This document shows positions 1 to 23,005 of a stretch of 32,000 nucleotides of DNA, one piece after another. The DNA is taken from positions 270,001 to 302,000 of the forward strand of contig MGBH01000001.1 in assembly GCA_001790095.1 (NCBI GenBank), given 5' to 3'. Under the pieces are notes generated by a model. That model ran no database searches. It was not told where the DNA came from and was given only the letters and a program-made list of their open reading frames with translations. Both the position numbers and the translations under genes were made by a program. This stretch comes from Candidatus Saccharimonadota bacterium. GTDB lineage: Bacteria; Patescibacteriota; Microgenomatia; UBA1406; GWC2-37-13. Positions within the stretch are counted from its first letter, which is position 1. Each line of letters starts with the position of its first letter.

Positions 1-2529
1 AGAGAGGCTGCAAGGAGAGTCTTGGGCGAGAGACACTATGACGTACAACTTTTAGCAGGGATTGCTCTACATGAAGGGAAAATAGTGGAACAGAAGACAG
101 GTGAAGGAAAAACACTATCTGCAACGACCGCTCTCTATCTAAATGCCTTGACTGGTAAGGGTGCACATTTAGTGACAGTAAATGATTATCTTGCTCGTCG
201 TGATGCCGGATGGATGGGGAAAGTATTTCATTTTTTAGGTTTAAAAACTGCGGCAATGATCGCAGAGCAGTCTTTTATCTACGACAATGAGTTTGAGGAT
301 AAAGAGGTACATGATTGGCGCCTTGTCCACCTCAAATCCGTATCGCGGAATGAAGCGTATTTGGCAGATATAGTTTATGGTATAAACAGCGAGTTTGGGT
401 TTGACTATCTTAGAGACAACATGGCCTCTTCACCCCATGACTTAGTGCAAAGAGGTTTCCATTTTGCCGTTATTGATGAAGCAGACTCAGTTCTTATAGA
501 TGAAGCACGTACTCCACACATCATTTCCGCTCCATATGAAGAAGATACTTCAAAATATTACAAATATGCTGGGATTGTCAAACAACTTGATCCACAAAAA
601 GACTACAAAATCGATGAAAAATCAAGAACTGCAAACTTAACGGAAGAGGGAGTAAAACATATAGAAACTATTTTAGGGATGGAGAATATTTATGAGAAAG
701 ACTTCGACACATTATTTCACATAGAAGCATCGCTTAAAGCAGAGGCATTGTTTAAAAATAATAAAGAATATATTGTTAAAGACGGGCAGATTGTAATTGT
801 CGACGAATTCACAGGACGACTTCTTGAAGGAAGACGTTTTTCTGAGGGCATACATCAAGCAATAGAAGCAAAAGAGGGAGTGAAGATACAGCGTGAATCA
901 AAGACACTAGCTACTGTATCCTTACAAAATTATTTCAGAATGTATGAGAAAATTGCAGGAATGACCGGTACTGCAGCCACAGAAGCTGAAGAATTCCATA
1001 AGATCTATAAAGCTGATGTTTTAACTGCGCCTACCCATCGTCCGATGGTCAGAAAAGATCATCCTGACATGATTTTTAAAACAGAAAAGGGGAAATGGGA
1101 CGCAGTGGTTGAAGAAATTGCTACCAATTACAAAACAGGTCGGCCTGTCTTAGTCGGAACCACCTCCATCGAAAAAAATGAACATCTATCTCATCTTTTA
1201 AAAGTAAAAGGTATTCCTCATGAGTTACTTAATGCAAAAAACCACGAACATGAGGCCTCAATCATTGCCTCAGCGGGAAAAAAAGGTAGTGTAACGGTTG
1301 CAACCAATATGGCCGGTCGAGGAGTAGATATTATACTGGGAGGAATGCCGCCAAATCAAACAAACGATGCAGATGTCGAATATAAAAATAAAAAAATAAA
1401 ATGGCAGAATGAACATGATGAGGTTGTTGCACTTGGGGGTCTTTATGTCATTGGAACAGAACGACATGAGTCTCGCAGGATTGATAATCAATTAAGAGGT
1501 CGTGCAGGAAGACAGGGGGATCCAGGCGAAACATGTTTTTTTGTCGCACTTGAGGACGATCTCATGAGGATTTTCGGCGGAGAGCAGATTTCGCGTCTCA
1601 TGACTTTTTTTAACTTTCCGGAAGATCAACCTCTAAGTCATCCTATGGTGTCAAAAGCAATCGAACAAGCCCAGGTGAAAGTGGAAGGATTCAATTTTGA
1701 TATCAGAAAACATCTCGTTGATTTTGATGATGTTTTAAACAAACAACGCGATATTATATACGCTAGGCGCCGAAAGATACTCTACTCTTCTGAAGAAAAA
1801 AAACAAGAGTTTAAGGGGGAAGTATTGGGGATGCTTAATGAAGAGGTGCAAAGAATCGTTGCTCAGTTTACATTTGAAGATGTGGAGTTAAATACAGATA
1901 TGTTAGTTAAGATTGGAAACGAGTTAAATTTTGTTCTCCCATTTGATCACGGAAAGCTACTAAGCTTTGCAAAAAACAAAGACACAGTTGGTATGAGTAA
2001 ATGGGTAGAAAACGAATTACAGTTTGCCTACGATGAACGAGAAAAAAAATTAGGAGTAGTTATTTGGAGTGAAGTGGTAAAAAGTATCTATCTCTCAACA
2101 ATTGACAAATACTGGACAGATCATCTGACCGGTATTGAAGACCTGCGTGAAGGGATAAATTTACGTGGCTATGCTCAGCTTGATCCATTAGTTGAATACA
2201 AAAATGAAGCATTTTCCATGTTTGAGAAGTTGATTGACGACATCGATTTTGAAGTAGCAAGACGGATATTTAAGGTTGAAGTAGAGGCTATTCCATCTAT
2301 TTCCCAACAGCATGAACAATCCCTAACTTATAAATCTGCAGCATCTATCGATCCTTTTTTAAAACAAAAAGAGCAAAGTGTTCAGCCTCAGCAATCTCCT
2401 CCCCAGGAAGAAAACGGTTTTAAAGTAATTCCACCTGGATCAACCCAACAAAAACCGGGTAGAAACGAACCATGTTGGTGTGGATCAGGAAAAAAATATA
2501 AGAAATGTCACCTAAATAGGGAACCGTAA
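1..2529 (+). CDS. secA: Preprotein translocase ATPase SecA (5' end cut by window edge)
   Basis: Frame 1 is open from nt 1 (REAARRVLGERHYDVQL), so the TTG at 22 in the ORF track is not the true start. Walker A GEGKTL, VIDEADSVLIDEARTP, TNMAGRGVDI, RGRAGRQGDPG. C-terminal zinc finger CWCGSGKKYKKCH. TAA stop at 2527-2529. Confidence 0.97.
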   Translation, partial: REAARRVLGERHYDVQLLAGIALHEGKIVEQKTGEGKTLSATTALYLNALTGKGAHLVTVNDYLARRDAGWMGKVFHFLGLKTAAMIAEQSFIYDNEFEDKEVHDWRLVHLKSVSRNEAYLADIVYGINSEFGFDYLRDNMASSPHDLVQRGFHFAVIDEADSVLIDEARTPHIISAPYEEDTSKYYKYAGIVKQLDPQKDYKIDEKSRTANLTEEGVKHIETILGMENIYEKDFDTLFHIEASLKAEALFKNNKEYIVKDGQIVIVDEFTGRLLEGRRFSEGIHQAIEAKEGVKIQRESKTLATVSLQNYFRMYEKIAGMTGTAATEAEEFHKIYKADVLTAPTHRPMVRKDHPDMIFKTEKGKWDAVVEEIATNYKTGRPVLVGTTSIEKNEHLSHLLKVKGIPHELLNAKNHEHEASIIASAGKKGSVTVATNMAGRGVDIILGGMPPNQTNDADVEYKNKKIKWQNEHDEVVALGGLYVIGTERHESRRIDNQLRGRAGRQGDPGETCFFVALEDDLMRIFGGEQISRLMTFFNFPEDQPLSHPMVSKAIEQAQVKVEGFNFDIRKHLVDFDDVLNKQRDIIYARRRKILYSSEEKKQEFKGEVLGMLNEEVQRIVAQFTFEDVELNTDMLVKIGNELNFVLPFDHGKLLSFAKNKDTVGMSKWVENELQFAYDEREKKLGVVIWSEVVKSIYLSTIDKYWTDHLTGIEDLREGINLRGYAQLDPLVEYKNEAFSMFEKLIDDIDFEVARRIFKVEVEAIPSISQQHEQSLTYKSAASIDPFLKQKEQSVQPQQSPPQEENGFKVIPPGSTQQKPGRNEPCWCGSGKKYKKCHLNREP

Positions 2530-2597: not shown

Positions 2598-4166
2598 TTA
2601 AAACCGAAAATCTATTTCAATCTTGCCGTTACCTGCTCTGATCTCTTTTATGATCGCTCGTAGAAAATGCTTCTTCTCTTCTAAGTTGGCATTGTCCCAT
2701 AAGATATTGAAGTCTTCTAATGATTTGGTAAATTTCTCCAGTTCTTTGCGTCGTTCGTTTATCATCTGAATCTTAGTTTTATATTCATCGGTTACCACAT
2801 GGTATTTATTTTCTTCCTCGTCTAGACGCTTTATATTGGCTGCATACACCTCTAACGAATCGATTCCAGCCTCATAGGCATCTTTCACCCTCTCACGCCG
2901 TCTATCGATGTCTGATAGGTGTTTAGCAGCTAATTTATAGTCAATTTCGAGGTTGTCTGTGATTGTGATATTTCTGTCAAAGATGAGCCGTTCTCTAGCC
3001 GTAGGATTGTTTACAAGATTCCTAATTTGATTTAAAACAAACTCTTCTAGTCTTGTGGCACTCATGATCCTGCGCTGGCATATTCCCGTGTATTTATAGC
3101 CACCGCACAGATATTCAAAAGTTGTGGTGTTGTTCCACTTGGGGTTCTTGTTTTTTCTGTTATGGTGACGAGTTAAATATGTAACGCCAGAACCGCAACG
3201 GATACATTTGGCTATACCCGTAAGTAGGCCTCGACTCATCTTTGCCCTACCTTTTTGCGAATTTCCCCGTATCTTTTTTTCTTTTTGGGCTAATTTAAAT
3301 ATTTCCTCGGGTATTATGGCCGTGTGGATACCTTTTTCGATAATACCCTTATGATCTCTTAGTGTCCGTTGTTTGTTTTTAGCATAATCGGCATGTCTCC
3401 ATCCCCAAAGAACTTTTCCCGTATAGGTTTCGTTTTGTAATATGTACTTTATCGCCTGTGCTCGCCAATATTTACCCCTAGGTGGCTTAACTCCTTTTTC
3501 TGTTAATGAAAACGCAATGCTCAAAGCTCCTTTTCCTTTGGTATATTCGTCAAATATCTGCCTGACAATAATTGATTTCTCTTCATCCACCTCAACTTTT
3601 CTTTGCACTTTATTCTTTTCGTCTATCCATCGAATAATTTTGTAGCCGTAGGGTACGTTATTTGGTATTTTGCCTGATTTAGCCACTGCTACCTTACCCA
3701 TTGTCATTCTGCGTCTGATCTTATTTCTCTCGATCTCATTCATGGTGTCACTAAAACCCTCTACCATAATACCTAGATCGTCATCGGTAGGATCGTAAAG
3801 TTTCGGATCTCGGGGTTCGACGGGGGTAGCTACGGAATAGGTTTGGATGAACATCTTTTTTAAATCATCCCTCGCCTTTGTGGCGTATGATTTGTTTCTG
3901 GCAAAGCGATCGAAGTCTTTAACTACCACTAAATCGAATTTATAGTCTGATGCATCCTGCATCATTCGTTGGAAACCTAATCTTTCCTCTATTAGATGTC
4001 CACTTTCGACGTCCTGATATGGTTCTCCCACCAAATCCCATCCATGATCGGCAATGGTTTTCTTGCAGACTCTTATTTGATCGGAGACAGATTCCTTGCC
4101 ATCGGCTTGTTCTTTAGTGCTTACACGGGCATATATCACTGCCCTGATCTTAAATTTATTTTCCAT
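2598..4166 (-). CDS. Large serine recombinase (integrase of the integrated element)
   Basis: N-terminal resolvase catalytic domain AVIYARVSTKEQ. Central recombinase domain. Cys-rich zinc-ribbon region (CIRCGS...CGGYKYTGIC). Long C-terminal coiled-coil. 522 aa, typical of large serine integrases. Confidence 0.93.
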   Translation of the reverse strand: MENKFKIRAVIYARVSTKEQADGKESVSDQIRVCKKTIADHGWDLVGEPYQDVESGHLIEERLGFQRMMQDASDYKFDLVVVKDFDRFARNKSYATKARDDLKKMFIQTYSVATPVEPRDPKLYDPTDDDLGIMVEGFSDTMNEIERNKIRRRMTMGKVAVAKSGKIPNNVPYGYKIIRWIDEKNKVQRKVEVDEEKSIIVRQIFDEYTKGKGALSIAFSLTEKGVKPPRGKYWRAQAIKYILQNETYTGKVLWGWRHADYAKNKQRTLRDHKGIIEKGIHTAIIPEEIFKLAQKEKKIRGNSQKGRAKMSRGLLTGIAKCIRCGSGVTYLTRHHNRKNKNPKWNNTTTFEYLCGGYKYTGICQRRIMSATRLEEFVLNQIRNLVNNPTARERLIFDRNITITDNLEIDYKLAAKHLSDIDRRRERVKDAYEAGIDSLEVYAANIKRLDEEENKYHVVTDEYKTKIQMINERRKELEKFTKSLEDFNILWDNANLEEKKHFLRAIIKEIRAGNGKIEIDFRF

Positions 4167-6358: not shown

Positions 6359-7105
6359 ATGAAAATGAAAAATAATGACGGGGTAGGTTGGTGTCTAATA
6401 CCACCTGATATCGTATGCAGAACCGATCTGACCTCAAATGAAAAGTTAATTGTCGGTAGGATTCATGGCCTTTGTCTAAAGCATGGATATTGCTATGCTT
6501 CGAATCGTTGGCTCGCTAAACAATTTGGATTGTCTGCAGGTACAATTTCAAACATCATAAGTTCTCTTGTTGTAAAAGGGTTAATTCAAAGAGAAATAAT
6601 TCGTGATAAAAATATGCGCATAATCCAGCGCAAGTTATATACCCTTTCAATGCAACAGTGGATACCTACCCATTCCCAAATAGAAGAGAGTAGTAGAGAG
6701 AATAGTATTAGAGATAATGTTTATAATGATCCCTTTCCCAAAAGTAAAAGGGATTTAAAAAAAGATACAGACACAATAACAAACTATTTGAAGAATGAAC
6801 CTACAGCGGTAAGCGAAGCAATTCGATATTATCTATACAGATATAAAGAAAAAATTGGGAAAATTCACCCTAAGATATCCAGATCTCAATATCATATTGT
6901 GAGAAGCGGATTTGAAAATCCAACGTGGATACATTCAGATAGTCTCTCCTATGAGGATTATAAAAAAATAATTGATAACTGGTTTTGGGATGAAAATGTC
7001 GAAAGTGACTACAATATTATTCATTTTGCCTCGGGGGATACGATCTCATATCATGCTCTGAAAGAAAACCTTATTGATGAAGAAGACAAACCTTGGCCAG
7101 AATAA
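6359..7105 (+). CDS. Winged-helix DNA-binding protein, replication-initiator/DnaD-like N-terminus
   Basis: LTSNEKLIVGRIHGLCLKHGYCYASNRWLAKQFGLSAGTISNIISSLVVKGLIQRE is the HTH pattern seen in phage and plasmid replication proteins. The rest is unrecognised. Confidence 0.6.
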   Translation: MKMKNNDGVGWCLIPPDIVCRTDLTSNEKLIVGRIHGLCLKHGYCYASNRWLAKQFGLSAGTISNIISSLVVKGLIQREIIRDKNMRIIQRKLYTLSMQQWIPTHSQIEESSRENSIRDNVYNDPFPKSKRDLKKDTDTITNYLKNEPTAVSEAIRYYLYRYKEKIGKIHPKISRSQYHIVRSGFENPTWIHSDSLSYEDYKKIIDNWFWDENVESDYNIIHFASGDTISYHALKENLIDEEDKPWPE

Positions 7106-9902: not shown

Positions 9903-9915
9903 AGGTTAAATAGGA

Positions 9916-11340
9916 CTAATTCCATAATTCATTCTCATTTCTGAACCTTGGGAAATAAGCATCACTACTTTGTCTTTGTGAAGCCACACGATACATATAC
10001 TCAAGAATATCGAGGAAGCTAGAAAAAGTGAGATATTCCATCGTCAGTCGGGCATAAAGCATCGTATCAAGAGCAACGCTAAATGGGCCACGCCTAATAA
10101 TAAATAGTCCATGATCATCTGGTGAATGTGCATAGAGGCCATCTTTCACTGAAAACATCCTATCTTTATCTTTTTCAAAATCAGCAATTTGTTTATCTAG
10201 ATCAGTTTCGGTACGATCTTCAATTTCCCAATTGTGCTGTTTTAGAATCTCCTTGAGTATGGTTACGTTTAACGTGCATTTAACCAAGTAATAACCAGAC
10301 ATCAAATACATGCAATCTTTAGCTGAGAATGGAAAGATTGAATACGGAGGAGCTGATCTAACAAAATTGCCTTTTTCGTCACTATAAAAAGTGTCCCAAT
10401 TGCTATGAATCAGTACCAAATCTTTTGTTTTTTCTTTAGGTGAGAGTTTCTTTAGTTCCTCAACATCAACAGGTTTCTTGTTTTCATTAATTGCTCTAAA
10501 ATTAGTTACTTCTATTTGTATGCAGTTGTCAAAATTTTCCGATACCACCATTTTCTTCTCTGATTTACGAAATAGCCGCTTGATTCTGCTAATGTAGGTA
10601 CGTGGCTCCAGTTCCATTACTCTCGTGTCAATATCAATTCCACCTATTCTAGCTTTGTTTGCTATCGCAATTCTTTGAAGTTCCAATAGCCTTTTTGCCT
10701 GATTGCTTATCTTTGCCTTACCTTGAACCCGTTTAAGGGTGAACATATTTTTAATATCTTTACCATATTTTTTGATTTCATGAATAAAAGCAACACCATC
10801 TTTGATCTCGGTTAAATCGCCTACCCTAAGAAAATGAGTTAAGTCATTAAGTATCACCAAACTATCAAGTGATTTAGAAATCCTATGCGCCCACATAAAC
10901 TCGCTTCTGAATTCTTTACTATTCACATCCACACTACCAGCACCAAATCCTCTGGAAGAGGAGTTTAGGAATGTGCGGTTATAGTTCAAGTTTCTCCATG
11001 CAATACCATCACATATCGTTCTGGAGATTCGTATTAATTGCTCATGGATGAGAATGTGATCTTCTAGTCCTCTGAGCTCTTTTTCTTCTTTAGGAGTTAA
11101 CTGGCTTTTGTCGTGTAGTTTTTTGGCCTTCTCTCGTCCTTCCCTAAGCTTTTCCCAAAACAACGTTTCTGCCTGCGCCAATTTGTATTGCATTGCAAGC
11201 ATTACGTCTTTCTTGTGCTTATGTCGCTTGCTCCTTGTTGCTCTTAGCACCTTTTCAAAGTAGCCAACCCACTCTTTGTAGTAGGAGCTGGCTAGAATAG
11301 CAGAGATTTTAATCGCATAGTCTTTTTCAAGCATGTACAT
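9916..11340 (-). CDS. Hypothetical 474-aa protein with NERD / PD-(D/E)xK-like nuclease motif
   Basis: aa 161-192 LVILNDLTHFLRVGDLTEIKDGVAFIHEIKKYG gives D175...E188-x-K190 in a beta-strand-like context (nt 10765-10860). No P-loop seen. Confidence 0.7.
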   Translation of the reverse strand: MYMLEKDYAIKISAILASSYYKEWVGYFEKVLRATRSKRHKHKKDVMLAMQYKLAQAETLFWEKLREGREKAKKLHDKSQLTPKEEKELRGLEDHILIHEQLIRISRTICDGIAWRNLNYNRTFLNSSSRGFGAGSVDVNSKEFRSEFMWAHRISKSLDSLVILNDLTHFLRVGDLTEIKDGVAFIHEIKKYGKDIKNMFTLKRVQGKAKISNQAKRLLELQRIAIANKARIGGIDIDTRVMELEPRTYISRIKRLFRKSEKKMVVSENFDNCIQIEVTNFRAINENKKPVDVEELKKLSPKEKTKDLVLIHSNWDTFYSDEKGNFVRSAPPYSIFPFSAKDCMYLMSGYYLVKCTLNVTILKEILKQHNWEIEDRTETDLDKQIADFEKDKDRMFSVKDGLYAHSPDDHGLFIIRRGPFSVALDTMLYARLTMEYLTFSSFLDILEYMYRVASQRQSSDAYFPRFRNENELWN

Positions 11341-11366
11341 ATATCTGAGTTTCGATCATCAATAAT

Positions 11367-12131
11367 TCATTTAACAAGTTGTTTTTTAAGTTTTTCTAAG
11401 ATTTTTATGTCATTTTCTGTTGCAACCTTCAGCTTTCTCATCTTCTCTAATAATGCAACAGCTTCTTTGTGGTTACCCTCCTTCTTGGCTTGCTTTGCTA
11501 ATGCCCGATATGCACTGCCCACAATTCCCAATGGCGCAGGTGGAGGACTATCTTTCCATTCTGGTGAAATTGCACACCTATCGCTTATGTTTAAGCCGAT
11601 CTCTGCACTTTTCAAATAGTTACCACGTTTGTAGAAGAGTTCAGCGTAAGAACACAAACATGGTTCGTATTCGTCAGTACTCTCAAAAACAAACTTTAAA
11701 ACTTTCTCTGCACGAACTAAATCCCTGATTGGAGCATCATCAACTAACATATGTCCAAGTTCGCCAGCTATATCTATTTGATCCAGATACTCAGCATTGT
11801 GCCGTTTTTCTAAGGGTAGTTGTACAGGAAGAGTGTTTGTGGATAATGAAAAAGCTTTATCGAAGCAAAATACCGCTTTATCCAGATATTCTTTCCTTTC
11901 ATCTCCACGAATATGCCAGGCAGTAAAGTTTCTCCAGGCTATGCCCATCCAATATGCTATTTTTGGGTTCTTAGTGTTCTGAAACTCATTTTCAATATCG
12001 CCAATAACCTTTAACATATTTTCTTTATTGAAATCTTGTTCATCCCCAAAGCCCATGCTTGTAATACGCATAAGTGCGGTTATAGCCTCGTTATCATTTG
12101 AATAATTTGATCTACTGAAGAAATTGAACAT
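11367..12131 (-). CDS. All-helical, TPR/Sel1-like repeat protein (254 aa)
   Basis: Repeated helix-pair segments: AYWMGIAWRNFTAW...YLDKAVFCFDKAF, YAELFYKRGNYLKSAEIGLN, GSAYRALAKQAKKEGNHKEAVALLEKM. Its start is 1 nt after the upstream stop. Confidence 0.65.
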   Translation of the reverse strand: MFNFFSRSNYSNDNEAITALMRITSMGFGDEQDFNKENMLKVIGDIENEFQNTKNPKIAYWMGIAWRNFTAWHIRGDERKEYLDKAVFCFDKAFSLSTNTLPVQLPLEKRHNAEYLDQIDIAGELGHMLVDDAPIRDLVRAEKVLKFVFESTDEYEPCLCSYAELFYKRGNYLKSAEIGLNISDRCAISPEWKDSPPPAPLGIVGSAYRALAKQAKKEGNHKEAVALLEKMRKLKVATENDIKILEKLKKQLVK

Positions 12132-12132
12132 A

Positions 12133-13281
12133 TTAGAGTTTGCTTAACAACGAGGCGTGGAACTCGTATGTTTTTGCAAACTCCGTGAAGGCATCAAAGT
12201 TGCTGAACATAAAAGACTCCTCAAGGCCACCCTCTGATTCGTAAGTCATATCACCATACTTAACAATGGGAATTTGATAATTGCCTTTGAATCTTTTATC
12301 CATAGAACCATCTTTATTAGCCTTCTTCCAAGTATGTTGAATAATCTCCGTATCCTTTGGTACACTTTCTTCTTCAACATAACCAGAAAGTTTCATTGTT
12401 GTCTTTACATCTTTAAGATCGAAGATTCCAAACTCTTGATTGTCTTTGAACAGAAGCAAGAATGTAGGAAATAAAAACACATCAGGGCCATTCGCATTGG
12501 GTAGAAATAAATGAGGTAAATCGCTTTTTACAAATTCAATTTCTCGTTCAGTTTTAGATATTGGAGTCCTTTTAGTGGCGGTTTGGGCTACAGTGCGTGC
12601 TTTGGCTCTGTCTACATTTTCTGCATAGGTAATATCCCAAATTTTTTCGCTGCTCATTAACTCATTGAATGTGTCAATACAGTTGAGCCAACTTTTCTCA
12701 AGTTGAGATTTATCAGCAAAAGTCAATTTAACAAAAGTTTCTAATACTTGCTTCTCTAGTTCTTTAACAACACTCTGTTGAATTTTTCTTGAATTGGCAA
12801 TCCCTTTATAGAAGAATCCTACTATAACGAGATAACTTCCAAAATGGATTGTGGAGAGTAAAAACAACTTTGTTTTAGCTGAATTGAGTTTTTTCAGTAA
12901 CTCAATACGTTGATTGTATATATCTGTAATTTGTTGACGTAGCACTTGAAAGTTTTTACTAGTAACTGTTAAGGCTTTGCTTGAGCTTCTGATAATATTT
13001 CCTGTATTTGATATTTCTATACCAGTTGGGTGTTCGTTATTCATAGGTGGATGTTTAACAGTATTAGAACTGTTATTTTTATTATTAGGAATTTTTAATA
13101 GATCGTCTACACTAACCGATGTTTTGTTATATACCTTATTGTAGAGTGCTTTCTTTGGATTCGTTAGTATTCCCATTCCTCTGGGAGCTTTCAAACCCAA
13201 GCTATGTCTTACAACTCGTTTCCAAGAGGTTCTAGCTGCAATTCTACGTTTTAATGATGGTGTTCTTATTCCAAATTTCAT
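12133..13281 (-). CDS. Single-pass membrane protein with a highly basic N-terminus and an unknown C-terminal domain of about 220 aa
   Basis: N-terminus MKFGIRTPSLKRRIAARTSWKRVVRHSLGLKAPRGMGILTNPKKALYNKVYNKT. TM helix at about aa 139-158 (LFLLSTIHFGSYLVIVGFFY). C-terminal domain unrecognised. Confidence 0.7.
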   Translation of the reverse strand: MKFGIRTPSLKRRIAARTSWKRVVRHSLGLKAPRGMGILTNPKKALYNKVYNKTSVSVDDLLKIPNNKNNSSNTVKHPPMNNEHPTGIEISNTGNIIRSSSKALTVTSKNFQVLRQQITDIYNQRIELLKKLNSAKTKLFLLSTIHFGSYLVIVGFFYKGIANSRKIQQSVVKELEKQVLETFVKLTFADKSQLEKSWLNCIDTFNELMSSEKIWDITYAENVDRAKARTVAQTATKRTPISKTEREIEFVKSDLPHLFLPNANGPDVFLFPTFLLLFKDNQEFGIFDLKDVKTTMKLSGYVEEESVPKDTEIIQHTWKKANKDGSMDKRFKGNYQIPIVKYGDMTYESEGGLEESFMFSNFDAFTEFAKTYEFHASLLSKL

Positions 13282-13302
13282 AATTGTTTTTAGCTTTAGT
13301 TA

Positions 13303-14082
13303 TTATTGAATACTGCACTGTCGCTGATAAAATTCATCTTGTTCTATCATCTTTCTAATTTCATTTTTTCTGTAGTTGTCAATGCAATTCTTGTTATTTT
13401 TCCCTGAGCCATACAAGCATTCATTTCTAACCCCATCTAAATTCAGGCTACTTCTAATAGATTCTAGTATCGTTAATTGAGGGTGTAACACACTATCATT
13501 TTCTATCCTGTATTCGATAGACTTCCATTCTTCAGAGTTCATTATTCCAAAAAACTTCCACTGTGCGTAAAAAGCTTCTGTCTCTTTATCAATACAAGAA
13601 AGCTCATCACTTCCATTGAGAGATTCTAGATATTGTTGTACGTGAGTAATTTCGTGGACAAGAAGTAATGCTGTAGTCAAGTCGTCCGTTGAACTATAAT
13701 CAGAATTAACAGTTATCGGAAAATAATCGCTTTTTATTTCAGGACTATTAAATACAAAATAGCCTTCTACACCAGAAGAACCTCGGGTATCATCTTCTAT
13801 AATTCTGATACAGTTAACTAATCGAGAAGGGAAAAAATACCAAGAATCTTCACCTTCACCACTATCTTCCCATAAACTGTATTTTTGTGCTATTAGACTC
13901 AAGGCTCGATCATATTGTGGTTCATTTTTTTGGCGTGTTGTTCTCGTACAATCTACAATTTCTGGTGTCTGTGTTAAATTTGAAGTATCTGAAACAACAG
14001 GAGACGTCTCTTTATAAAAGATTGAAGCAACCCAAACTAGTAAAACAAAAACTAAACCAAGAATAATATAACTTTTTTTCAT
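13303..14082 (-). CDS. Exported or anchored putative zinc metallopeptidase (HExxH)
   Basis: N-terminal hydrophobic helix IILGLVFVLLVWVASIFY. HEITH at aa 143-147 with downstream Glu residues (KETEAF, aa 166-171). Six Cys after the helix, consistent with an extracytoplasmic location. Confidence 0.7.
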   Translation of the reverse strand: MKKSYIILGLVFVLLVWVASIFYKETSPVVSDTSNLTQTPEIVDCTRTTRQKNEPQYDRALSLIAQKYSLWEDSGEGEDSWYFFPSRLVNCIRIIEDDTRGSSGVEGYFVFNSPEIKSDYFPITVNSDYSSTDDLTTALLLVHEITHVQQYLESLNGSDELSCIDKETEAFYAQWKFFGIMNSEEWKSIEYRIENDSVLHPQLTILESIRSSLNLDGVRNECLYGSGKNNKNCIDNYRKNEIRKMIEQDEFYQRQCSIQ

Positions 14083-14090
14083 AATTCTCT

Positions 14091-14714
14091 TTAGATATTT
14101 AATACTTTCTTTGACAACATGTCACCATATTTCCGATACATTTCCTCGGGCATTGAGAGTTTTAGCTTGTTCTCTATAGACGTGTTGTCGATAGTATCTT
14201 TTAATACTGAACTTTTTAAAAAATAGTCTCCCTCATGCGAAGAAGTACCAAGTAGACTGATAGTGCCAACCATAAACTTTGCAAAATTCTTCTTGTTTAA
14301 TACATCTTTTGACTTCACTATTACTGGCTCATGGATTTTAGCCTTATCAGATTTTGTATATGAGTCATAAGCAGTTAGGAGATTGTCTACAAAAGAATTT
14401 GGATCGAACATGTGCTTAGTTGTTGAAATAAATTGATCAAGTACCCCAAGTGCTATCAATAACTTTTCATCAGAGGATATTTTTGATTTTTTAACACCAT
14501 TCAAAACATCTATAAGCCCCATTGTAAGAACTTCTTTTGTAATAAAATCCTCTAATTCAAACTTATCAGGAAACAATTTATGCAAAATATTTCCGCTTTT
14601 TGGACGCTTCTTATATCCATAAGCACGCCAAACCTCATCATCCAACAATGGCCTCATTGCTGTACTTGCTAGGTATTCAACTAGATCGTTAATATCGGTT
14701 GTTTTATGTTCCAT
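14091..14714 (-). CDS. Hypothetical protein (208 aa from the internal ATG)
   Basis: The track ORF extends to 14792 and would overlap the upstream HTH gene by 77 nt. The ATG at 14712-14714 (MEHKTTD) lies 1 nt after the HTH stop, so the start was trimmed. No motif recognised. Confidence 0.65.
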   Translation of the reverse strand: MEHKTTDINDLVEYLASTAMRPLLDDEVWRAYGYKKRPKSGNILHKLFPDKFELEDFITKEVLTMGLIDVLNGVKKSKISSDEKLLIALGVLDQFISTTKHMFDPNSFVDNLLTAYDSYTKSDKAKIHEPVIVKSKDVLNKKNFAKFMVGTISLLGTSSHEGDYFLKSSVLKDTIDNTSIENKLKLSMPEEMYRKYGDMLSKKVLNI

Positions 14715-14715
14715 A

Positions 14716-14922
14716 TTATTTTTTTGTCCCACTCTTACTACGAGAGATATATGCCTGGATATCTTGTTTACGATAACGCCTATCTCCGACACCTCGCCGA
14801 GTGCCTACACGTACGGCTTTTAAGATTCCTTGTCGATCCCATCTCCGCAATGTTTGAGCGTTTACATTTAAGATTTTCGCTGTTTGCTCAATTGTTAACA
14901 GCTCTTCAATTTGTGGGTTCAT
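14716..14922 (-). CDS. HTH_17 / excisionase-family DNA-binding protein, paralogue of 4193-4402, first gene of the operon
   Basis: LTIEQTAKILNVNAQTLRRWDRQGILKAVRVGTRRGVGDRRYRKQDI aligns residue by residue with the first HTH. Start chosen at ATG 14922 (MNPQIEE), giving 68 aa against 69 aa for the paralogue. The track start at 14970 is less likely. Confidence 0.75.
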   Translation of the reverse strand: MNPQIEELLTIEQTAKILNVNAQTLRRWDRQGILKAVRVGTRRGVGDRRYRKQDIQAYISRSKSGTKK

Positions 14923-14924
14923 AG

Positions 14925-14951
14925 TAATTGTCTTTAATTGTACTAAATTGC
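14925..14951. promoter_or_regulatory. Three 10-bp-phased direct repeats TAATTGT / TAATTGT / AAATTGC immediately upstream of the operon's first gene
   Basis: Copies at 14925-14931, 14935-14941 and 14945-14951, with exact 10-nt periodicity. TAAATTGC recurs at 14991-14998. Confidence 0.45.
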
Positions 14952-15037
14952 TTGAGAATTTGCGATACAATAATGTAGAATATTAATAGTTAAATTGCCT
15001 AAACTTTGTGGTTTCCCCATAAGGCATGGCAAAAAAT

Positions 15038-15146
15038 CGGTTCAACGCAGTAAGCCCTTCATGGTGTTACGTTGAACCGTCGTGTGCCGAAAGGTATACG
15101 GGTGGCGCAAGCTACCAGCCGTGAGGGGCTTTTTGGTTCACACGGC
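15038..15146 (+). ncRNA. Structured GC-enriched 5' leader (candidate riboswitch/attenuator) of the zinc-ribbon gene
   Basis: 10-bp perfect hairpin 15038-15047/15070-15079. GAAA-tetraloop hairpin 15081-15100. GCAA-tetraloop hairpin 15101-15116. Competing 14-bp helix 15052-15065/15118-15131 followed by a U-run. The G.U pairs make the fold plus-strand specific. SD AAGGAGG at 15153-15159. Confidence 0.5.
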
Positions 15147-15166
15147 ATCTTTAAGGAGGTGAACAA

Positions 15167-15478
15167 ATGACAACTATTAAATGTCCATATTGCGCAGAAG
15201 AGATCCAAGTAGACGCCAAGAAGTGCAAACACTGTGGGGAGTGGTTAAATATTCCCAATGGCAATAACATTTTCAGTCCTTCAACTAGTTCAGTTGATGC
15301 AAGATCGGTAAGCAAAGGTATCAAAGACGCCGAATATAGCAAGTTTGTAATGGGTGTCTTGGGAGTAGTTGATCTATTTATTGCCGTTTGCGTTGGACTG
15401 TTTACCCATTGGATAGTTGGTTTAATCGTATTTGTCGGAATCGGAATGTGGATCGGTAATCGACACTATCAAGAATGA
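15167..15478 (+). CDS. Zinc-ribbon domain membrane protein (103 aa)
   Basis: CPYC...CKHC zinc-ribbon at the N-terminus and two C-terminal TM helices. Strong SD AAGGAGG 7 nt upstream of the ATG. Confidence 0.75.
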   Translation: MTTIKCPYCAEEIQVDAKKCKHCGEWLNIPNGNNIFSPSTSSVDARSVSKGIKDAEYSKFVMGVLGVVDLFIAVCVGLFTHWIVGLIVFVGIGMWIGNRHYQE

Positions 15479-15838
15479 GCATTATGATAAATAATCCTTA
15501 CTATCAATTCTTCTCCAATGTGTGAATGTGTAGACTCATAACTGCACATTTAGCCTTGATTGGAAAGACTACATAGACTATATATAGTAGACGTTTAACA
15601 TCCCAACACATATTTATTTGCTATAACTAGGGATATTAATCGGGATCAGCTATACTATTGGAAGATTCCGTTCAATTTAGATTGAGCTAAAATAAGTAAA
15701 ATCGAGGGGGCGGAGTAGTGAAATTGAAAATGCAGGGTAGAGGGTTAATAATCTAGTGTCATACTAGATAGGCATATGCGGTACCCTATATGCTAGCATT
15801 TCAAAAAATGCCACTGGCCTAATTGATACAAATATCCT

Positions 15839-17494
15839 TCATATGTTTTTGACCATGTAAGTATCTATGAGATTATATCCAAATTTCTCGTAATACTTTC
15901 TTGTTCCAACTCCCGCAATTATGGCAATTTTGTTTGAACCTTGTTTTGTAGATAATTTTTCAGCCTCTTTTAATAAACGAATGCCAAAATGGTGATGTTG
16001 AATCGTATTCTTTTCTTTTTTTCCAATGGGAACGACTTGTCCGTATACATGTAGCTCTCGTATCAGAGCTGCTCCAGCTAAACTCTTAGCTAAAGCAAAC
16101 TGTGTATGGGGGATAAACAGTCGGATGAATCCTAGCGAATGTTTGTTATCGTCTGTAAATTCTAAAAAAAATTCCTTACCATTAGACACATTATATGAGA
16201 TAGTGTGCAGGTATGGTTTTCCAACAATTTTCAGATCTTTGATTTCACGACACCTGATGCAGCTGCATATTTTATTATTGTCATGCATTTTTTTTTGAAT
16301 AATCTCCCGAAGATTAGGAGCAAATTGCTTAATTTGCATTGCATCGGTTGTAATGTCTCGTGTCAACCTTCCAATCCGCACCCAGGGAGGAACTACCTCG
16401 GATTTGAATTTTATGATTATCTCAATCAATTCATCCAGGGAGTAGGGTTTGTAGGTTTCATTTTTAAACCATTCAAAAAGTTTTGTATGTGTCGTAATTG
16501 TGGTCGGATAAAGTTTGAGATGGTCAGGTTTAAACCAAGGATTACTAAAAATCTCTTTCATCAATTGAAGGTCAAGTGAGGGGGTTGTCCCGGGAAGATT
16601 GGGCATAAGGTGATATCCTATTTTAAGGCCATAGCTTCTCAAGAGAGAGGTTGCTTTCATTACTTGCTTGACTGTATGGTTGCGTTTAATAAGAAAGTAT
16701 ATCTTATTGCTTGGCATCTGTACTCCTATTTCAACATGTGTAACGCCAAGAGTGCGCAGGTACACAAGCTCTTTATCGTTGATGTAGTCGGGTCGAGTCT
16801 CAATATTAATACCTATGATACGAGATTTTGCCGTTTCGTTTTCTTTCTGAGAGTCAAATAAAGTCTTTACTGTTTTAACGTAATCAATCTGACCACTTTT
16901 TAAATATTTTTCAATGTCTACGTTGCACGCATCAAACACGCGCCTCACAAACCATCTCCGGTATTGTTTTTTATAGAAAGAAAACGTTCCTCCTTTTATG
17001 ATAATTTCAACTTTGTCGATTGAGTGACCAGAAAGATAGAACATGACAAGTCTTTGTAGTGTTTGTTTGAATGGATCAAAATGATGTCTTATAGCTCGCA
17101 TGACAGCGGGTTCATCGGAAAAATAACTTTTTGGCATACCTGGTTCATTTGGACAGTAAACACATGAAAATGGACAACCAGTACCCTTTGTAAATAAAGT
17201 AAGGGGAACGATTCCAGATAGAGATCTGGTTTTCGTTTTTACCAAAAACTGTTTTATCTGTTTGATAAATGAGGAAGAGAATCTACTTTGATGACGAATA
17301 AGTATGAAGTTTAGCCACCAAGCAGAGGGTTTTATAGCTTTAAAGTCCTTTTGTAGTTTGAGCGAATCCATAAGCAGCCGGTTCATACTTTTTTGATCAA
17401 GGGGCGCTTTTTTTTCAAACCCTTGTTCAAGTAGTTGAAGCAGCTTGATAAGTGAATCCTCAAGTTGTGTTGGAAAATTAGCGGGGTAAAACAT
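15839..17494 (-). CDS. elp3: Elp3-family radical SAM / GNAT tRNA-modification enzyme (tRNA U34 carboxymethylation type)
   Basis: Radical SAM cluster motif CPFSCVYCP. C-terminal GNAT block ELHVYGQVVPIG...QHHHFGIRLLKEAEKL...IAIIAGVGTRKYYEKFGY, characteristic of Elp3. 551 aa. Confidence 0.9.
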   Translation of the reverse strand: MFYPANFPTQLEDSLIKLLQLLEQGFEKKAPLDQKSMNRLLMDSLKLQKDFKAIKPSAWWLNFILIRHQSRFSSSFIKQIKQFLVKTKTRSLSGIVPLTLFTKGTGCPFSCVYCPNEPGMPKSYFSDEPAVMRAIRHHFDPFKQTLQRLVMFYLSGHSIDKVEIIIKGGTFSFYKKQYRRWFVRRVFDACNVDIEKYLKSGQIDYVKTVKTLFDSQKENETAKSRIIGINIETRPDYINDKELVYLRTLGVTHVEIGVQMPSNKIYFLIKRNHTVKQVMKATSLLRSYGLKIGYHLMPNLPGTTPSLDLQLMKEIFSNPWFKPDHLKLYPTTITTHTKLFEWFKNETYKPYSLDELIEIIIKFKSEVVPPWVRIGRLTRDITTDAMQIKQFAPNLREIIQKKMHDNNKICSCIRCREIKDLKIVGKPYLHTISYNVSNGKEFFLEFTDDNKHSLGFIRLFIPHTQFALAKSLAGAALIRELHVYGQVVPIGKKEKNTIQHHHFGIRLLKEAEKLSTKQGSNKIAIIAGVGTRKYYEKFGYNLIDTYMVKNI

Positions 17495-17516
17495 GTTAAA
17501 TTGCTATAATGTGGCT

Positions 17517-18278
17517 ATGCAAAGATATTTTGATCAGATGGACTTCATTTTATCAGATCTGTTTAAAAAATATGCCTCCTTTGATATAAAACCTGGCGTG
17601 TTGTTATCTGGCGGAATAGACTCTACGACCATTACATATTTTGTCTCAAAATACTTTAAAGACTTTACTATTTTATCGATGGGTACAGATAAGACGAAGG
17701 ACAGAAGCTATATCGACATAGTATCTTTATATCTAAAGCACGAATACATATGGGTTGAAATGAACAAGGACGAAGTGGTGGAAAATTATAAAGAAGTTAA
17801 AAAACTACTAGAACAAGCCCTTGTTCCTACAAGCTTGATGCATATGTCCCTTGCCATGGGCTACTTTCTTCTTTTCAAAAAAGCCAAGCAATTAGGCATA
17901 ACCCACATTGTCACAGGGCAGGGACCAGATATCCTCTTAGGGGGATATCATAAATACAAGTCAGTTACCAACATAAATGTGGAAATAAAAAAGGATTTAC
18001 CACTTCTTGAGATAGATAAAAAAAGAGATGGAATTGTAGCAAAAAATTTTGGCATAACACTTTACAATCCCTACCTTGAAAAAGAGTTTGTTGATTTTTG
18101 CCTCACCATTCCTCAGAAATTTAAATTGCAAAAAGGTATTGAGAAGTATATATTAAGAGAATTTTCAAGAAAAAAAGGACTTCCAAGCAAAATAGTTAAC
18201 AGACCGAAAAAAGCATTTCAGTATTCAACAGGTATACAAAAGTTGGTATTAAATGTATTAAAATATACGCATGAATGA
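17517..18278 (+). CDS. Asparagine-synthetase-like PP-loop ATP pyrophosphatase (synthetase domain only, no glutaminase domain)
   Basis: PP-loop LLSGGIDSTT and GQGPDILLGGYHKY match the AsnB C-terminal domain. The track start 17493 shares a CATG with the elp3 start, so the ATG at 17517 (MQRYFDQ) is preferred. Confidence 0.85.
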   Translation: MQRYFDQMDFILSDLFKKYASFDIKPGVLLSGGIDSTTITYFVSKYFKDFTILSMGTDKTKDRSYIDIVSLYLKHEYIWVEMNKDEVVENYKEVKKLLEQALVPTSLMHMSLAMGYFLLFKKAKQLGITHIVTGQGPDILLGGYHKYKSVTNINVEIKKDLPLLEIDKKRDGIVAKNFGITLYNPYLEKEFVDFCLTIPQKFKLQKGIEKYILREFSRKKGLPSKIVNRPKKAFQYSTGIQKLVLNVLKYTHE

Positions 18279-18609
18279 GTTTATGTATTTATTAACCAAC
18301 GGACTTGCTGTATATATTTCTTCTTACTTATTAAGAGGAGTACACGTGAAGGATTTTTTTGTAGCTATTGTAGTGGCAGTTATTTTAAGTATTGTAAACA
18401 TAATTTTAAAACCTATGATCGTTTTTTTAACCCTTCCACTAAACATTTTGACGCTTGGGTTATTTACTCTTGTGATCAATGGATTCATGGTTATTTTGGT
18501 AAGTAGAGTGGTTCCTGGATTTACCGTTGACTCAGTTGGATGGGGAATACTTTTTAGCATAATTTTATCCTTTATAAGCTCACTTTTTAATTGGTTAAAA
18601 AAAGAATAA
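18271..18609 (+). CDS. Phage-holin-family-4-like (YvlD-type) 4-TM membrane protein
   Basis: 112 aa. LLRGVHVKDFFVAIVVAVILSIVNIILKPMIVFLTLPLNILTLGLFTLVINGFMVILVSRVVPGFTVD matches the PF04020 pattern. 8-nt overlap (ATGAATGA) with the upstream gene. Confidence 0.75.
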   Translation: MNEFMYLLTNGLAVYISSYLLRGVHVKDFFVAIVVAVILSIVNIILKPMIVFLTLPLNILTLGLFTLVINGFMVILVSRVVPGFTVDSVGWGILFSIILSFISSLFNWLKKE

Positions 18610-20049: not shown

Positions 20050-20634
20050 TTATTGACAGGCTTTCCATAATCCCTTATTAAATTCTCTCGCCTGTTGTTG
20101 AGCGGTCATAAATTGTTCCGCATATGCTACATCGGGGGGAAAGGTTGAAGCAAGGGCATATCCTTCACGGACAAGATAGTCGTTTACAAAGATACCCTCT
20201 CCTGTGGCAATTGGAGTATCATATACCCACACATATCTAAGGAGTCGATTGTATCTATCAACTTCAGAAACATCTTTTTCAAGAAGAACATATTTTTTTT
20301 CCACCAGTTCGATATTCTTTTTTGATGCCTCTTTGCCGAAACATTGCAAGCCTTTTGTCGGGTGTTTTGTTTCAGGAGTATCGATGCCAATGTAACGGAC
20401 TGTTTGATTGCCTTCAATGACGATTGTATCACCATCGATTACTCTTTCTACTTGTTTAAGAGATACTTGTTGTTTCTTTTGTGTTGGTGAGACAATCCCT
20501 TTTTCGTTCTTAGGGGGGGGTTGCTTATAAGTTATGACTCCAAAAGCTACCAAGATCGTTATAAGTAATACATATATTATCTGGAAAAGTTTAGGTCTTT
20601 TTCTCATGTATACAGTATAATATATTTCTGACAT
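20050..20634 (-). CDS. Membrane-anchored thermonuclease (staphylococcal nuclease family)
   Basis: N-terminal TM LFQIIYVLLITILVAFGVITY, then VIDGDTIVIEG...VRYIGIDTPE...YNRLLRYVW, typical SNase motifs. The start may instead be the ATG at 20607 (MRKRPK). Confidence 0.88.
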   Translation of the reverse strand: MSEIYYTVYMRKRPKLFQIIYVLLITILVAFGVITYKQPPPKNEKGIVSPTQKKQQVSLKQVERVIDGDTIVIEGNQTVRYIGIDTPETKHPTKGLQCFGKEASKKNIELVEKKYVLLEKDVSEVDRYNRLLRYVWVYDTPIATGEGIFVNDYLVREGYALASTFPPDVAYAEQFMTAQQQAREFNKGLWKACQ

Positions 20635-21214
20635 GCCTCAAAAAATAATCATAATTCGACACGGGCAAACAGCAAACAATAAAAAAAGGATTCTTCAGGG
20701 TCATCTGGATACGCCCCTTGATGAAGAAGGGAAAGCTCAGTCACATCGGGCTGCAAAGATTTTAAAGAACAGGAAAATCGACGTTGTTTTTTCTTCTGAT
20801 TTAATAAGAGCATTTCAAACAGCTCAAATTGTTACCAAGGGGATAGTGAAACATATCAAACGTACTCCGCTACTGAGGGAAAAATATTTTGGGAAGTTTC
20901 AGGGCATGACGTTTGATGAAATTGGAAGTTATTTGACGAAATTTGGCGAACAAGGTAACTTTTCATTTAGAGGAAGAGAAAAGGAATTTGGAGTTGAAAC
21001 AGAAGATGAGGTGATTGAACGCATAACTGAATTTAAAAAAATGCTTGTCACACATAAAGGTAAAACAATTGCCATTTTTTCACATGGGGGATTTATCAGG
21101 AGACTCTGTATCGTATTTGGCATTCCCAAAGAGAAAATAGAGAAAGTATATATTCCCAACGCAACGCCTATGGTTCTCATTAAAAAAGGGAACACATATA
21201 TTCTTGAGGAGTAA
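20633..21214 (+). CDS. Histidine phosphatase family protein (phosphoglycerate-mutase-like)
   Basis: IIIIRHGQT (RHG catalytic motif), SSDLIRAFQTA, FSHGGFIR second catalytic His. Confidence 0.88.
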   Translation: MPQKIIIIRHGQTANNKKRILQGHLDTPLDEEGKAQSHRAAKILKNRKIDVVFSSDLIRAFQTAQIVTKGIVKHIKRTPLLREKYFGKFQGMTFDEIGSYLTKFGEQGNFSFRGREKEFGVETEDEVIERITEFKKMLVTHKGKTIAIFSHGGFIRRLCIVFGIPKEKIEKVYIPNATPMVLIKKGNTYILEE

Positions 21215-21217
21215 TCC

Positions 21218-22996
21218 TCACTTCACTGTTACGCTTTTTGCTAAATTCCTTGGTTTATCAGGATCTGCTCCTCTTCCTACGCCAAGATAATATCCAAGTA
21301 GCTGACCAACAATAACATTCAAAAATATTGAGTATCGTGGATCTACATCTGGTGTCTGTATCCATTCATCAAACAGAGGCGACCTTGTTGGGCCAACTCC
21401 AATGATATATCCTCCACGGGCCTTCATCTGTGAAGCAGATGAACAGATTTCACCGTATGATGGGCCACTGTCTGTCATGATGAAGCATGGGGTTCCCTTT
21501 TGGATAAGCGTTATTACTCCGTGTTTGAGTTCTCCGGCTGCAAAGGCCTCAGCATGCATATAGCTTGTTTCTTTTAATTTCAATGCAAACTCCAAAGCTG
21601 CTGGATAGTTATTATATTTACCGATCACGTAAGCATGTTCTTCGCTCAGTAATCGTTTTGCTATATTAAGAACAGTACTCATTAAGGATGCGTTAAGCCA
21701 ATGTTTTAGCTTACTTTTTAACTGGGTCGAACTGCGTATTAGACCTGTATGAGGTTTTCTTTCATAGTATTGATTGGCTACGGCGTATAGGGTTGCAAGC
21801 TGGGCTGTAAAGGCTTTTGTTGAAACAACGGATATTTCAGGTCCGGCTCCAACTGGAAGTGTAACATCTGCTAACCGTTCAAGAGATGATCCACGGGAAT
21901 TGACAATAGCCACAACTATGGCACCTCTTTTTTTAGCTTCTTTTGCAGGTATAAGAGTGTCGGCCGTTTCTCCACTTTGAGATATGGCAAATACAATTGA
22001 TTTGTTTGAAATAGACTTTTCAAAAGGAAGATACTCATAGCCGCCTACCACTTTAGAATCAATACCAAGTTGTGCAAAGTAATAATGAGCGGCTAGAGCA
22101 CAGTAATAGGCACTGCCACATCCTAATAATAGGGGCGTATATCCACTAACCATTTTTTTTATAACATGCTCAACAGTTTTCTTATTTGAATCAAAAGCTT
22201 GGGGAATAGTCTTTTTTTCCTCCATTATTTCTTTTAGAAGAAAGTGTGGGAATCCTCCTTTTTCAGTGTCTTCAAGAGTCCAGTCAACTGTTTGTTTCTT
22301 AAACGAAATATAAGACTGTTTAATCAGATCAAAGATCCTCCTTTCATTTTTTGAGACAACGACCGCCTCATTGTCATTTAGATAATATACGGAGTTGGTT
22401 TTATTCAGAAAAGCAGTAGTGTCTGAGGCGAGGAACGTTTCTTTGGGAGAGAATCCGACAACAAGCGGAGAGCCATTTCTGCATGCGATTACTGACCCTG
22501 TTTGGTAGTCTAAGACTACAATAGCGTTTGACCCGACTAGTTCACGAAACGTTGAGAACACCGCCTCTTCGAGGTCCATGGTTTTGCGTTTTTCTTCAAC
22601 AAGGTGGGCGATGACTTCGGTATCTGTTTCGGAGATAAAGGAGTGACCTTTCTTTATTAATTCAATCTTTAATTCGTGGTAATTTTCAACAATTCCGTTA
22701 TGAATTACCGCTATTTGCTTTTTACAGTCAAGGTGTGGATGAGCATTAGTGTCGGTGACCCCTCCATGAGTTGCCCAACGGGTATGTCCAATTGCAACAG
22801 ACCCATCAGGTAATGAGGTAGTAGCGATCCCTATTTTACCGACATGCTTGTCCACTTGGATAGTTGATCCGCCCATTGGTTTTATTGCAATTCCCCATGA
22901 ATCATAGCCGCGGTACTCAAGTTTTTTTAAACCCGCAAGCACCGTTTGTGCCGCTTGGTTTTGTTTGTCTTCAATAACAGCAAAAATTCCACACAT
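21218..22996 (-). CDS. glmS: Glutamine--fructose-6-phosphate aminotransferase
   Basis: The required N-terminal MCGI is at the ATG at 22994-22996; the track's 7-aa extension from a TTG is rejected. GHTRWATHG, two SIS domains (SQSGETADT), C-terminal KSVTVK-type end. Confidence 0.97.
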   Translation of the reverse strand: MCGIFAVIEDKQNQAAQTVLAGLKKLEYRGYDSWGIAIKPMGGSTIQVDKHVGKIGIATTSLPDGSVAIGHTRWATHGGVTDTNAHPHLDCKKQIAVIHNGIVENYHELKIELIKKGHSFISETDTEVIAHLVEEKRKTMDLEEAVFSTFRELVGSNAIVVLDYQTGSVIACRNGSPLVVGFSPKETFLASDTTAFLNKTNSVYYLNDNEAVVVSKNERRIFDLIKQSYISFKKQTVDWTLEDTEKGGFPHFLLKEIMEEKKTIPQAFDSNKKTVEHVIKKMVSGYTPLLLGCGSAYYCALAAHYYFAQLGIDSKVVGGYEYLPFEKSISNKSIVFAISQSGETADTLIPAKEAKKRGAIVVAIVNSRGSSLERLADVTLPVGAGPEISVVSTKAFTAQLATLYAVANQYYERKPHTGLIRSSTQLKSKLKHWLNASLMSTVLNIAKRLLSEEHAYVIGKYNNYPAALEFALKLKETSYMHAEAFAAGELKHGVITLIQKGTPCFIMTDSGPSYGEICSSASQMKARGGYIIGVGPTRSPLFDEWIQTPDVDPRYSIFLNVIVGQLLGYYLGVGRGADPDKPRNLAKSVTVK

Positions 22997-23005
22997 AATA
23001 AAAAT

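Follow-up and report, generated by a model that had tools for sequence, protein, structure and literature searches.

The window analysed here is a stretch of 32,000 nucleotides (nt) of contig MGBH01000001.1 (assembly GCA_001790095.1, Candidatus Saccharimonadota bacterium), in which an elp3 gene lies head to head with a gene for a small PP-loop protein related to asparagine synthetase (AsnB) (Table 1). The two genes form a pair that is kept in a clade of bacteria of the Candidate Phyla Radiation (CPR). A first-pass annotation, made from the letters of the window and its translated open reading frames (ORFs), had suggested that the pair could make up a two-step pathway in which 5-carboxymethyluridine (cm5U) is formed at the wobble uridine (U34) of tRNA and then amidated to 5-carbamoylmethyluridine (ncm5U) or a similar product. 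We describe the two gene products and the conservation of their adjacency, and weigh this suggestion against other explanations for the pairing.

Table 1. Features of the window in window coordinates, the gene pair first (aa, amino acids)
Feature	Position	Strand	Description and basis
elp3	15839..17494	-	551 aa; predicted radical-SAM and acetyltransferase-type tRNA U34 carboxymethylase; TIGR01211, Pfam
Divergent intergenic region	17495..17516	.	22 nt; extended -10 box; sequence read
Stand-alone AsnB-type synthetase-domain (PP-loop) enzyme	17517..18278	+	253 aa; PF00733, without glutaminase domain
Four-transmembrane (4-TM) membrane protein	18271..18609	+	112 aa; PF04020 4-TMS 'holin' family, 98.5 bits
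Large serine recombinase/integrase	2598..4166	-	in 13.3-kb insert
Replication-initiator-like protein	6359..7105		in 13.3-kb insert
HTH/excisionase-like ORF	14716..14970		in 13.3-kb insert
LOOT RNA (RF03000)	14996-15116	+	full-length Rfam match, 89.7 bits (gathering score 46.4)
glmS	21218-23017	-	part of synteny block common to closer relatives
glmS ribozyme (RF00234)	23086-23274	-	Rfam, 71 bits; upstream of glmS
t6A genes: TsaC/Sua5-TsaE fusion, then TsaD	27515-29629	+	fusion of 351 aa

The two gene products

The identity of Elp3 given in the first-pass annotation was borne out by the NCBIfam model TIGR01211, which gave 464.2 bits against a cut-off of 350 and aligned residues 78-551 with model positions 49-522, that is, up to the last of the 522 positions. 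Pfam detected the radical S-adenosylmethionine (SAM) domains (Radical_SAM PF04055, 60.7 bits; Radical_SAM_C PF16199, 69.7 bits), and the translation contains CPFSCVYC, the three-cysteine cluster motif of radical-SAM enzymes. The C-terminal GNAT/KAT domain is covered by the TIGR01211 alignment, yet it gave no Pfam GNAT match, and most of the CPR Elp3 proteins in this study likewise have no GNAT domain by Pfam. The acetyl-CoA loop (residues ~497-504), for which the family pattern is Q/RxxGxG/A, reads QHHHFGIR as opposed to QHxG[LYF]G[KE] in most relatives, and the first glycine of this loop is missing also from the closest relatives (QHMSYGK, QHHMYGK, QHKSLGE). It follows from family membership that the window elp3 is predicted to encode a cm5U-forming enzyme acting on U34.

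The product of the second gene had been described as the synthetase domain of AsnB standing alone, in 253-261 aa and with an intact PP-loop, and this held in the domain searches. Asn_synthase (PF00733, 116.8 bits) was the sole significant Pfam family, and both SGGIDS and GQGPDILLGGY are present in the protein. The AsnB model TIGR01536 was matched over positions 246-379 of 517 only (112.6 bits, cut-off 267.1), and PRK09431 gave 87.7 bits against an equivalog cut-off of 499. No glutaminase domain was found, as there was no GATase match in Pfam and the N-terminal half of TIGR01536 remained unmatched. Its sequence matches the deposited 253-aa hypothetical protein A2334_02395 of Ca. Roizmanbacteria RIFOXYB2_FULL_38_10 at 100% identity, and the contig itself comes from Ca. 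Roizmanbacteria (CPR/Microgenomates). A search of ~5.8 billion proteins returned 213 relatives, all of ~250 aa, and the named ones come from Roizmanbacteria, Microgenomates or Patescibacteria. A longer ORF of 261 aa (17493..18278, plus strand) is available through an in-frame ATG at 17493, and the start codons of the two longest ORFs, elp3 and this one, have in common the CATG at 17492-17495. Since both the homologues and the deposited record start where the ATG at 17517 lies, we have taken this ATG as the start codon, so that the two genes are 22 nt apart. Both the shared CATG and the maximum distance of 22 nt between the starts had been read correctly before.

The predicted structure and the alignments place the protein on the asparagine-synthetase branch of the PP-loop enzymes. 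The AlphaFold2 (AF2) model (predicted local distance difference test score, pLDDT, 93.6) had its best fold match in the C-terminal domain of human asparagine synthetase (ASNS; 6GQ3, template-modelling (TM) score 0.87). A profile search of the PDB aligned the family along the entire synthetase domain with human ASNS, E. coli AsnB, CarA and beta-lactam synthetase, with 87 bits over the whole domain in the alignment to AsnB/human ASNS. Among 24 diverse family members SGGxDS, GQGPD and RPKxAxQYSTG were invariant. In human ASNS numbering, the PP-loop, G365, D367, D400, R403 and K466 are kept, while E364 is always Q, S366 is P and E368 is I or V, so that the adenylation machinery looks intact and the substrate pocket looks only partly remodelled. 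The isoelectric point (pI) of the family is basic, with a median of 8.4 versus 5.4 for the human ASNS C-terminal domain.

Two other types of PP-loop enzyme were considered and rejected. A thiolase or Fe-S type enzyme (as in MnmA and NcsA/Ctu1) is unlikely given the lack of any conserved cysteine column in the alignment of the 24 members, and the fold match of the model to NcsA and TrmU was weak (TM ~0.45). A QueC-type enzyme was likewise dismissed, as PF06508 scored 17.6 bits (cut-off 22) over residues 36-68 only and TIGR00364 scored 16.3 versus 150; the similarity to QueC is confined to the PP-loop, and the zinc-binding cysteines of QueC are absent from the family.

Conservation and extent of the pairing

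One genome per GTDB species was scanned with a profile of the PP-loop family, which gave 37 loci, and partners were sought in these by tblastn with the window proteins. One contig (L015) stops at the PP-loop start and was excluded. In 35 of the 36 testable species-representative loci the immediate neighbour was Elp3, 34 times head to head and once in tandem (L036, with elp3 first and the PP-loop gene second after a 3-nt gap). The same pair was present on two further metagenome contigs seeded with divergent PP-loop proteins, which brings the count to 37 of 38 loci. Starting from the Elp3 side, four divergent Elp3 proteins, 46-53% identical to that of the window, all had a divergent 254-263-aa PF00733 neighbour (4/4) in otherwise unrelated surroundings. 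Altogether, more than 40 independent contigs with differing flanks show the adjacency, and the pairing that had been noticed in a single window is conserved within the lineage from whichever gene the survey starts.

The two genes have also diverged together. In 39 complete pairs the identity ranged over 41-100% for Elp3 (median 49%) and 29-100% for the PP-loop protein (median 41%), and the distance matrices of the two proteins were correlated (r = 0.87, a value reached by none of 2000 Mantel permutations), indicating that the genes are inherited together. The 71 ORFs on the outer flanks of the pairs fall into 33 families, making the pair itself the sole constant of these loci. The synteny downstream of the pair in the window (patatin, a 159-aa protein, a nuclease, a histidine phosphatase and glmS) is found in closer relatives only; it is gone in L022-L036, where the pair persists. 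Retention of the pair despite lost synteny is the pattern expected of genes that must stay together, not of passive synteny, and supports a functional link between elp3 and the PP-loop gene in the CPR (Microgenomates/Roizmanbacteria) clade.

Two observations on single loci can be added. In L037 (6000-11900) both genes are broken into several frames, as would be seen in joint pseudogenisation, but so are their neighbours, and the broken frames most likely reflect assembly quality. In L128, a class I SAM methyltransferase gene (Methyltransf_11/25 type, 248 aa; 6479-7225, plus strand) is situated 1.7 kb beyond the pair on its downstream side; no such gene was seen close to the pair at other loci.

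The start-to-start gap is short in all head-to-head loci (roughly 6-75 nt). In the window it holds an extended -10 box, TGcTATAAT, at 17502-17510 (TG at 17502-17503 and TATAAT at 17505-17510), 6 nt before the ATG at 17517. A TATAAT-like box ending 3-12 nt (mostly 5-7) before the PP-loop start was found in 35 of 42 loci (L001-L040 and L126-L127), with an exact TATAAT in 22, and it is absent from L036, in which the PP-loop gene follows elp3 in tandem. Such spacing leaves no room for a ribosome-binding site, and the PP-loop mRNA, which would be transcribed from the -10 box ~6 nt before the start codon, therefore probably has no leader or almost none. The box before the PP-loop start is kept also in L008 (9334-10732), where a histidine-phosphatase gene stands in the divergent position; a histidine phosphatase is also encoded after the pair in L096, one of the loci described below, and in the window at 20633-21214.

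The link is not shared by the wider family of AsnB-like proteins. When 1.84 billion cluster representatives were searched exhaustively with a profile, ~25 representatives of the core family scored above 200 bits, and below them the scores ran on without a break through proteins with GQGADELFGGY and KKAxQYGSG motifs (P0267-P0386). The architectures in this wider family are stand-alone proteins of 250-300 aa, proteins of 400-570 aa that carry GATase_7 at the N-terminus, and a few proteins with a diphthamide-synthase-type domain; the fusion to a Dph6-type domain was recognised by Pfam in P0271 and by a shared C-terminal motif only in P0274, P0350 and P0372. In 80 loci obtained from a metagenome scan with a wider-family profile (L041-L120), recurrent neighbours were adenylosuccinate lyase (purB; 24/80), a deacetylase-fold protein (20/80), GatA (8) and GatC (6), and Elp3 was found at two. 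One of these (L096) belongs to the clade nearest to the core family (representative P0253) and comes from another CPR-like bacterium; here 44 nt separate the two head-to-head genes, and Elp3 shares 40% identity with the window protein. The other (L107, 9938-12674) is archaeal, with both genes on one strand and elp3 following the PP-loop gene after 313 nt, and the relatives of its PP-loop protein are archaeal as well (Bathyarchaeota, Odinarchaeota, Nitrososphaeria, Pyrococcus, Natronomonas). In two further loci (L121 and L123, with proteins 83% and 44% identical to that of L107) the PP-loop gene is again near elp3 and the gene for the CCA-adding enzyme. The order in all three is the AsnB-like gene upstream of elp3, then the CCA-adding enzyme gene; upstream there are carbamoyl-phosphate synthase genes in L121 and L123, and L107 has other pyrimidine-pathway genes. 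Proteins of 41-45% identity in L122, L124 and L125 are encoded outside such an arrangement, and in L122 there is an adjoining QueT gene.

With Elp3 at two of 80 loci, a link to Elp3 as a property of the whole stand-alone AsnB-like family is ruled out. At the loci of the core CPR family and of the clade closest to it the link is strong; it occurs only here and there in one lineage of archaea, and most of the superfamily is without it. The functional connection proposed in the first-pass annotation is thus supported for the Microgenomates/Roizmanbacteria clade and the clade next to it, and does not hold as a general rule for the wider family.

Possible function of the pair

AsnB-type enzymes adenylate a carboxylate at the PP-loop, after which ammonia attacks the adenylate. 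It seems plausible, although we hold this reading only tentatively, that Elp3 and the PP-loop protein constitute a two-gene module for the modification of the tRNA wobble uridine, in which ncm5U or a close amide would be formed in a reaction dependent on ATP and ammonia. In the first step, Elp3 would place a carboxymethyl group on C5 of U34 by radical chemistry with SAM, the acetate coming from acetyl-CoA, and so yield cm5U with a free carboxylate. The PP-loop protein would then bind ATP at its PP-loop and adenylate the cm5 carboxylate, and free ammonia would attack the acyl-adenylate to give ncm5U or a closely related amide. Substrate, product and source of nitrogen are our inference from the two protein families: free ammonia is the predicted donor because the PP-loop protein is without a glutaminase domain and an ammonia tunnel. 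Both genes would be run from the very short divergent control region that they have in common.

The chemistry of Elp3 is consistent with the need for such a second enzyme. Elp3 uses free acetate that is shuttled through a tunnel, and cm5U keeps both acetate oxygens (PMC13315578), which means that no activated acyl group is present on the tRNA and that formation of the amide would need a fresh, ATP-dependent activation. The invariance of the ATP and adenylation residues of AsnB in the family (PP-loop, D367, K466) speaks for amidation, and the basic pI of the family is weak evidence in the same direction. According to reviews the enzyme converting cm5U to ncm5U is unknown in any organism (PMC6412123, PMC7694415, PMC10275265), and it is the one missing gene in the near-complete catalogue of yeast tRNA-modification genes (PMC6412123); the statement of the first-pass annotation that this step has no assigned enzyme therefore agrees with the literature searched. 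Searches of the same literature yielded no earlier report of a tie between Elp3 and AsnB-like or PP-loop enzymes, and nothing relevant on ASNSD1/YML096W with ncm5U or on Elp3 in Patescibacteria.

Both protein families and bacterial Elp3 are known already, while a conserved module of Elp3 and a stand-alone AsnB domain, and the amidation of an RNA carboxylate, were not found described. It is possible, with somewhat less confidence than for the proposed two-step module, that the PP-loop family would be the first identified enzyme amidating a carboxylate borne by RNA, converting cm5U34 to ncm5U34 with ATP and free ammonia. If this is true, the family would be a new RNA-modifying activity within the AsnB superfamily, a eukaryote-like xcm5U wobble pathway would operate in some CPR bacteria, and the sequence and structure of the family could serve as a template in the search for the eukaryotic ncm5U enzyme, for example among uncharacterised AsnB paralogues, of which yeast YML096W and human ASNSD1 are candidates, although the PP-loop family may not be homologous to that enzyme. 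It could possibly also point to the archaeal route to 5-cyanomethyluridine (cnm5U). The pair turns the long-standing question of ncm5U into a directly testable one, and if amidation proves false, the conserved pairing still needs explaining, for example by an ATPase accessory to Elp3.

Several observations weigh against the proposed amidation. The paired genomes are all related CPR bacteria of one radiation, and the loci are thus not phylogenetically independent. Around the core-family PP-loop gene of L008, Elp3 is missing from the 10 kb upstream and the 3 kb downstream, and no fusion of the two proteins was found among the listed Elp3 matches (439-593 aa) or the PP-loop representatives. In the wider, mostly archaeal AsnB-like family Elp3 is rare, as described above for L096 and L107. 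To our knowledge ncm5U is not known from bacteria, a point on which no specific search was made. The active site also calls for restraint. In the model published for the beta-aspartyl-AMP complex (PMC10245805), four residues hold the aspartate moiety: G365, D367, E368 and R403. The family retains three of them, with only E368 changed; a pocket remodelled to this limited extent advises caution regarding a substrate other than an amino acid.

Retention of G365, D367 and R403 would in fact be expected if the PP-loop protein were an enzyme of small molecules, in the simplest case an ammonia-dependent asparagine synthetase, and if its adjacency to elp3 resulted from synteny or shared regulation with no common substrate. 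Asparagine synthetases are its closest relatives in fold and in sequence, the archaeal sister family is without linkage to Elp3 and has some loci near gatC/gatA and purB, and the relatedness of the paired genomes fits this explanation as well. However, the adjacency has outlasted complete turnover of the flanks, a change of orientation and divergence to ~41% (Elp3) and 29% (PP-loop protein) identity. Moreover, E364 is replaced by Q and E368 by I or V in every aligned member, the score against the AsnB model is far under the equivalog cut-off, and the family is restricted to the clade bearing Elp3. We therefore consider a small-molecule enzyme unlikely, although it is a chance to be kept in mind. 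Co-inherited linkage, for its part, shows only that two proteins work jointly and not in which reaction, and the PP-loop protein could be a partner of Elp3 on the same tRNAs without any amidation, either as an ATP-dependent factor for loading or releasing tRNA (cf. Kti12 and Elp456) or by adenylating another atom of the wobble base. The conserved ATP-binding residues and the basic pI would suit such a role, and bacterial Elp3 is without the accessory subunits of eukaryotes (PMC13315578). This seems to us quite improbable, given that archaeal and Dehalococcoides Elp3 work alone in vitro (PMC13315578, PMC6367351), that every known member of the AsnB branch uses a carboxylate substrate and that there is no conserved cysteine to support thiolation.

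Even if the PP-loop enzyme acts on the cm5 carboxylate, its product could be another one: an amide built from another amine, a hydroxamate, or the nitrile cnm5U, which would be reached through a second, ATP-dependent dehydration as in the formation of preQ0 by QueC. The nucleophiles in the AsnB superfamily are varied (beta-lactam synthetase, CarA and the hydroxyamidotransferase TsnB9 are examples), their choice is unconstrained in a protein without a glutaminase domain, and the biosynthesis of cnm5U is unknown (PMC7694415). On the other hand, the simplest nucleophile is free ammonia, cnm5U has been reported from archaea only, and the likeness to QueC is limited to the PP-loop and lacks the zinc-binding cysteines, which makes a different product the least likely of the explanations considered here. 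Amidation of cm5U with free ammonia is, tentatively, the best of these readings.

Surroundings of the pair and comparison with known systems

The 4-TM gene overlaps the PP-loop gene by 8 nt, as had been noted before, and was considered as a third member of the module. This was ruled out, as it is present in only 5 of ~40 loci (the related loci being L004, L006, L010 and L018). On the other side of the pair, ~13.3 kb (2530-15838) are inserted between secA (22..2529) and the elp3 stop codon, which directly adjoins the end of secA in 16 related loci. In addition to the genes in Table 1, the insert carries HTH (helix-turn-helix) and PadR regulators and many orphan ORFs, and the LOOT RNA is located at its elp3-proximal end beside a small HTH gene. 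The insert resembles an integrative mobile element; neither phage structural genes within it nor convincing att-type direct repeats around it were found. The genes for N6-threonylcarbamoyladenosine (t6A) lie ~10 kb from the pair on the same contig.

Compared with AsnB and human ASNS, the PP-loop protein has the same fold, invariant equivalents of SGGxDS, D367, D400, R403 and K466, and the same expected chemistry of carboxylate adenylation followed by ammonia attack. It differs from them in its size (253 versus ~550 aa), in being without the glutaminase domain and the ammonia tunnel, in the family-wide changes E364Q, S366P and E368I/V, in scoring below the equivalog cut-off and in having its gene tied to elp3. 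The archaeal proteins annotated as 'asparagine synthase C-terminal domain-containing' resemble it in several respects, as they are stand-alone or short, have Q at E364, show ~30% identity to the PP-loop family and have a basic pI (~9). Unlike the PP-loop family, they keep E368, have many relatives with a glutaminase domain, and have Elp3 nearby in 2/80 loci.

Functional parallels can be drawn also to more distant enzymes. NadE, QueC and Dph6 each consist of a single PP-loop ATP pyrophosphatase domain, adenylate a carboxylate and take free ammonia as the nitrogen source, and Dph6 in addition acts on a macromolecule of the translation apparatus and has its type of domain fused to some of the wider AsnB-like members. 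In contrast to the PP-loop protein they belong to other branches of the superfamily (TM 0.4-0.5, with sub-threshold sequence scores). The system most relevant for the proposed function is the xcm5U34 pathway of Elongator/Elp3 in eukaryotes and archaea, in which Elp3 is followed by Trm9/Trm112, giving 5-methoxycarbonylmethyluridine (mcm5U), or by an unknown enzyme, giving ncm5U. The window differs from it in its bacterial host, in an Elp3 that stands alone and in having no Trm9-like gene in the module, and in this analysis we identified no homologue of the PP-loop family in eukaryotes. The likeness lies in the first enzyme, an Elp3 that passes the family cut-off, and in the second step proposed here, which would be the reaction that is missing from the eukaryotic pathway.

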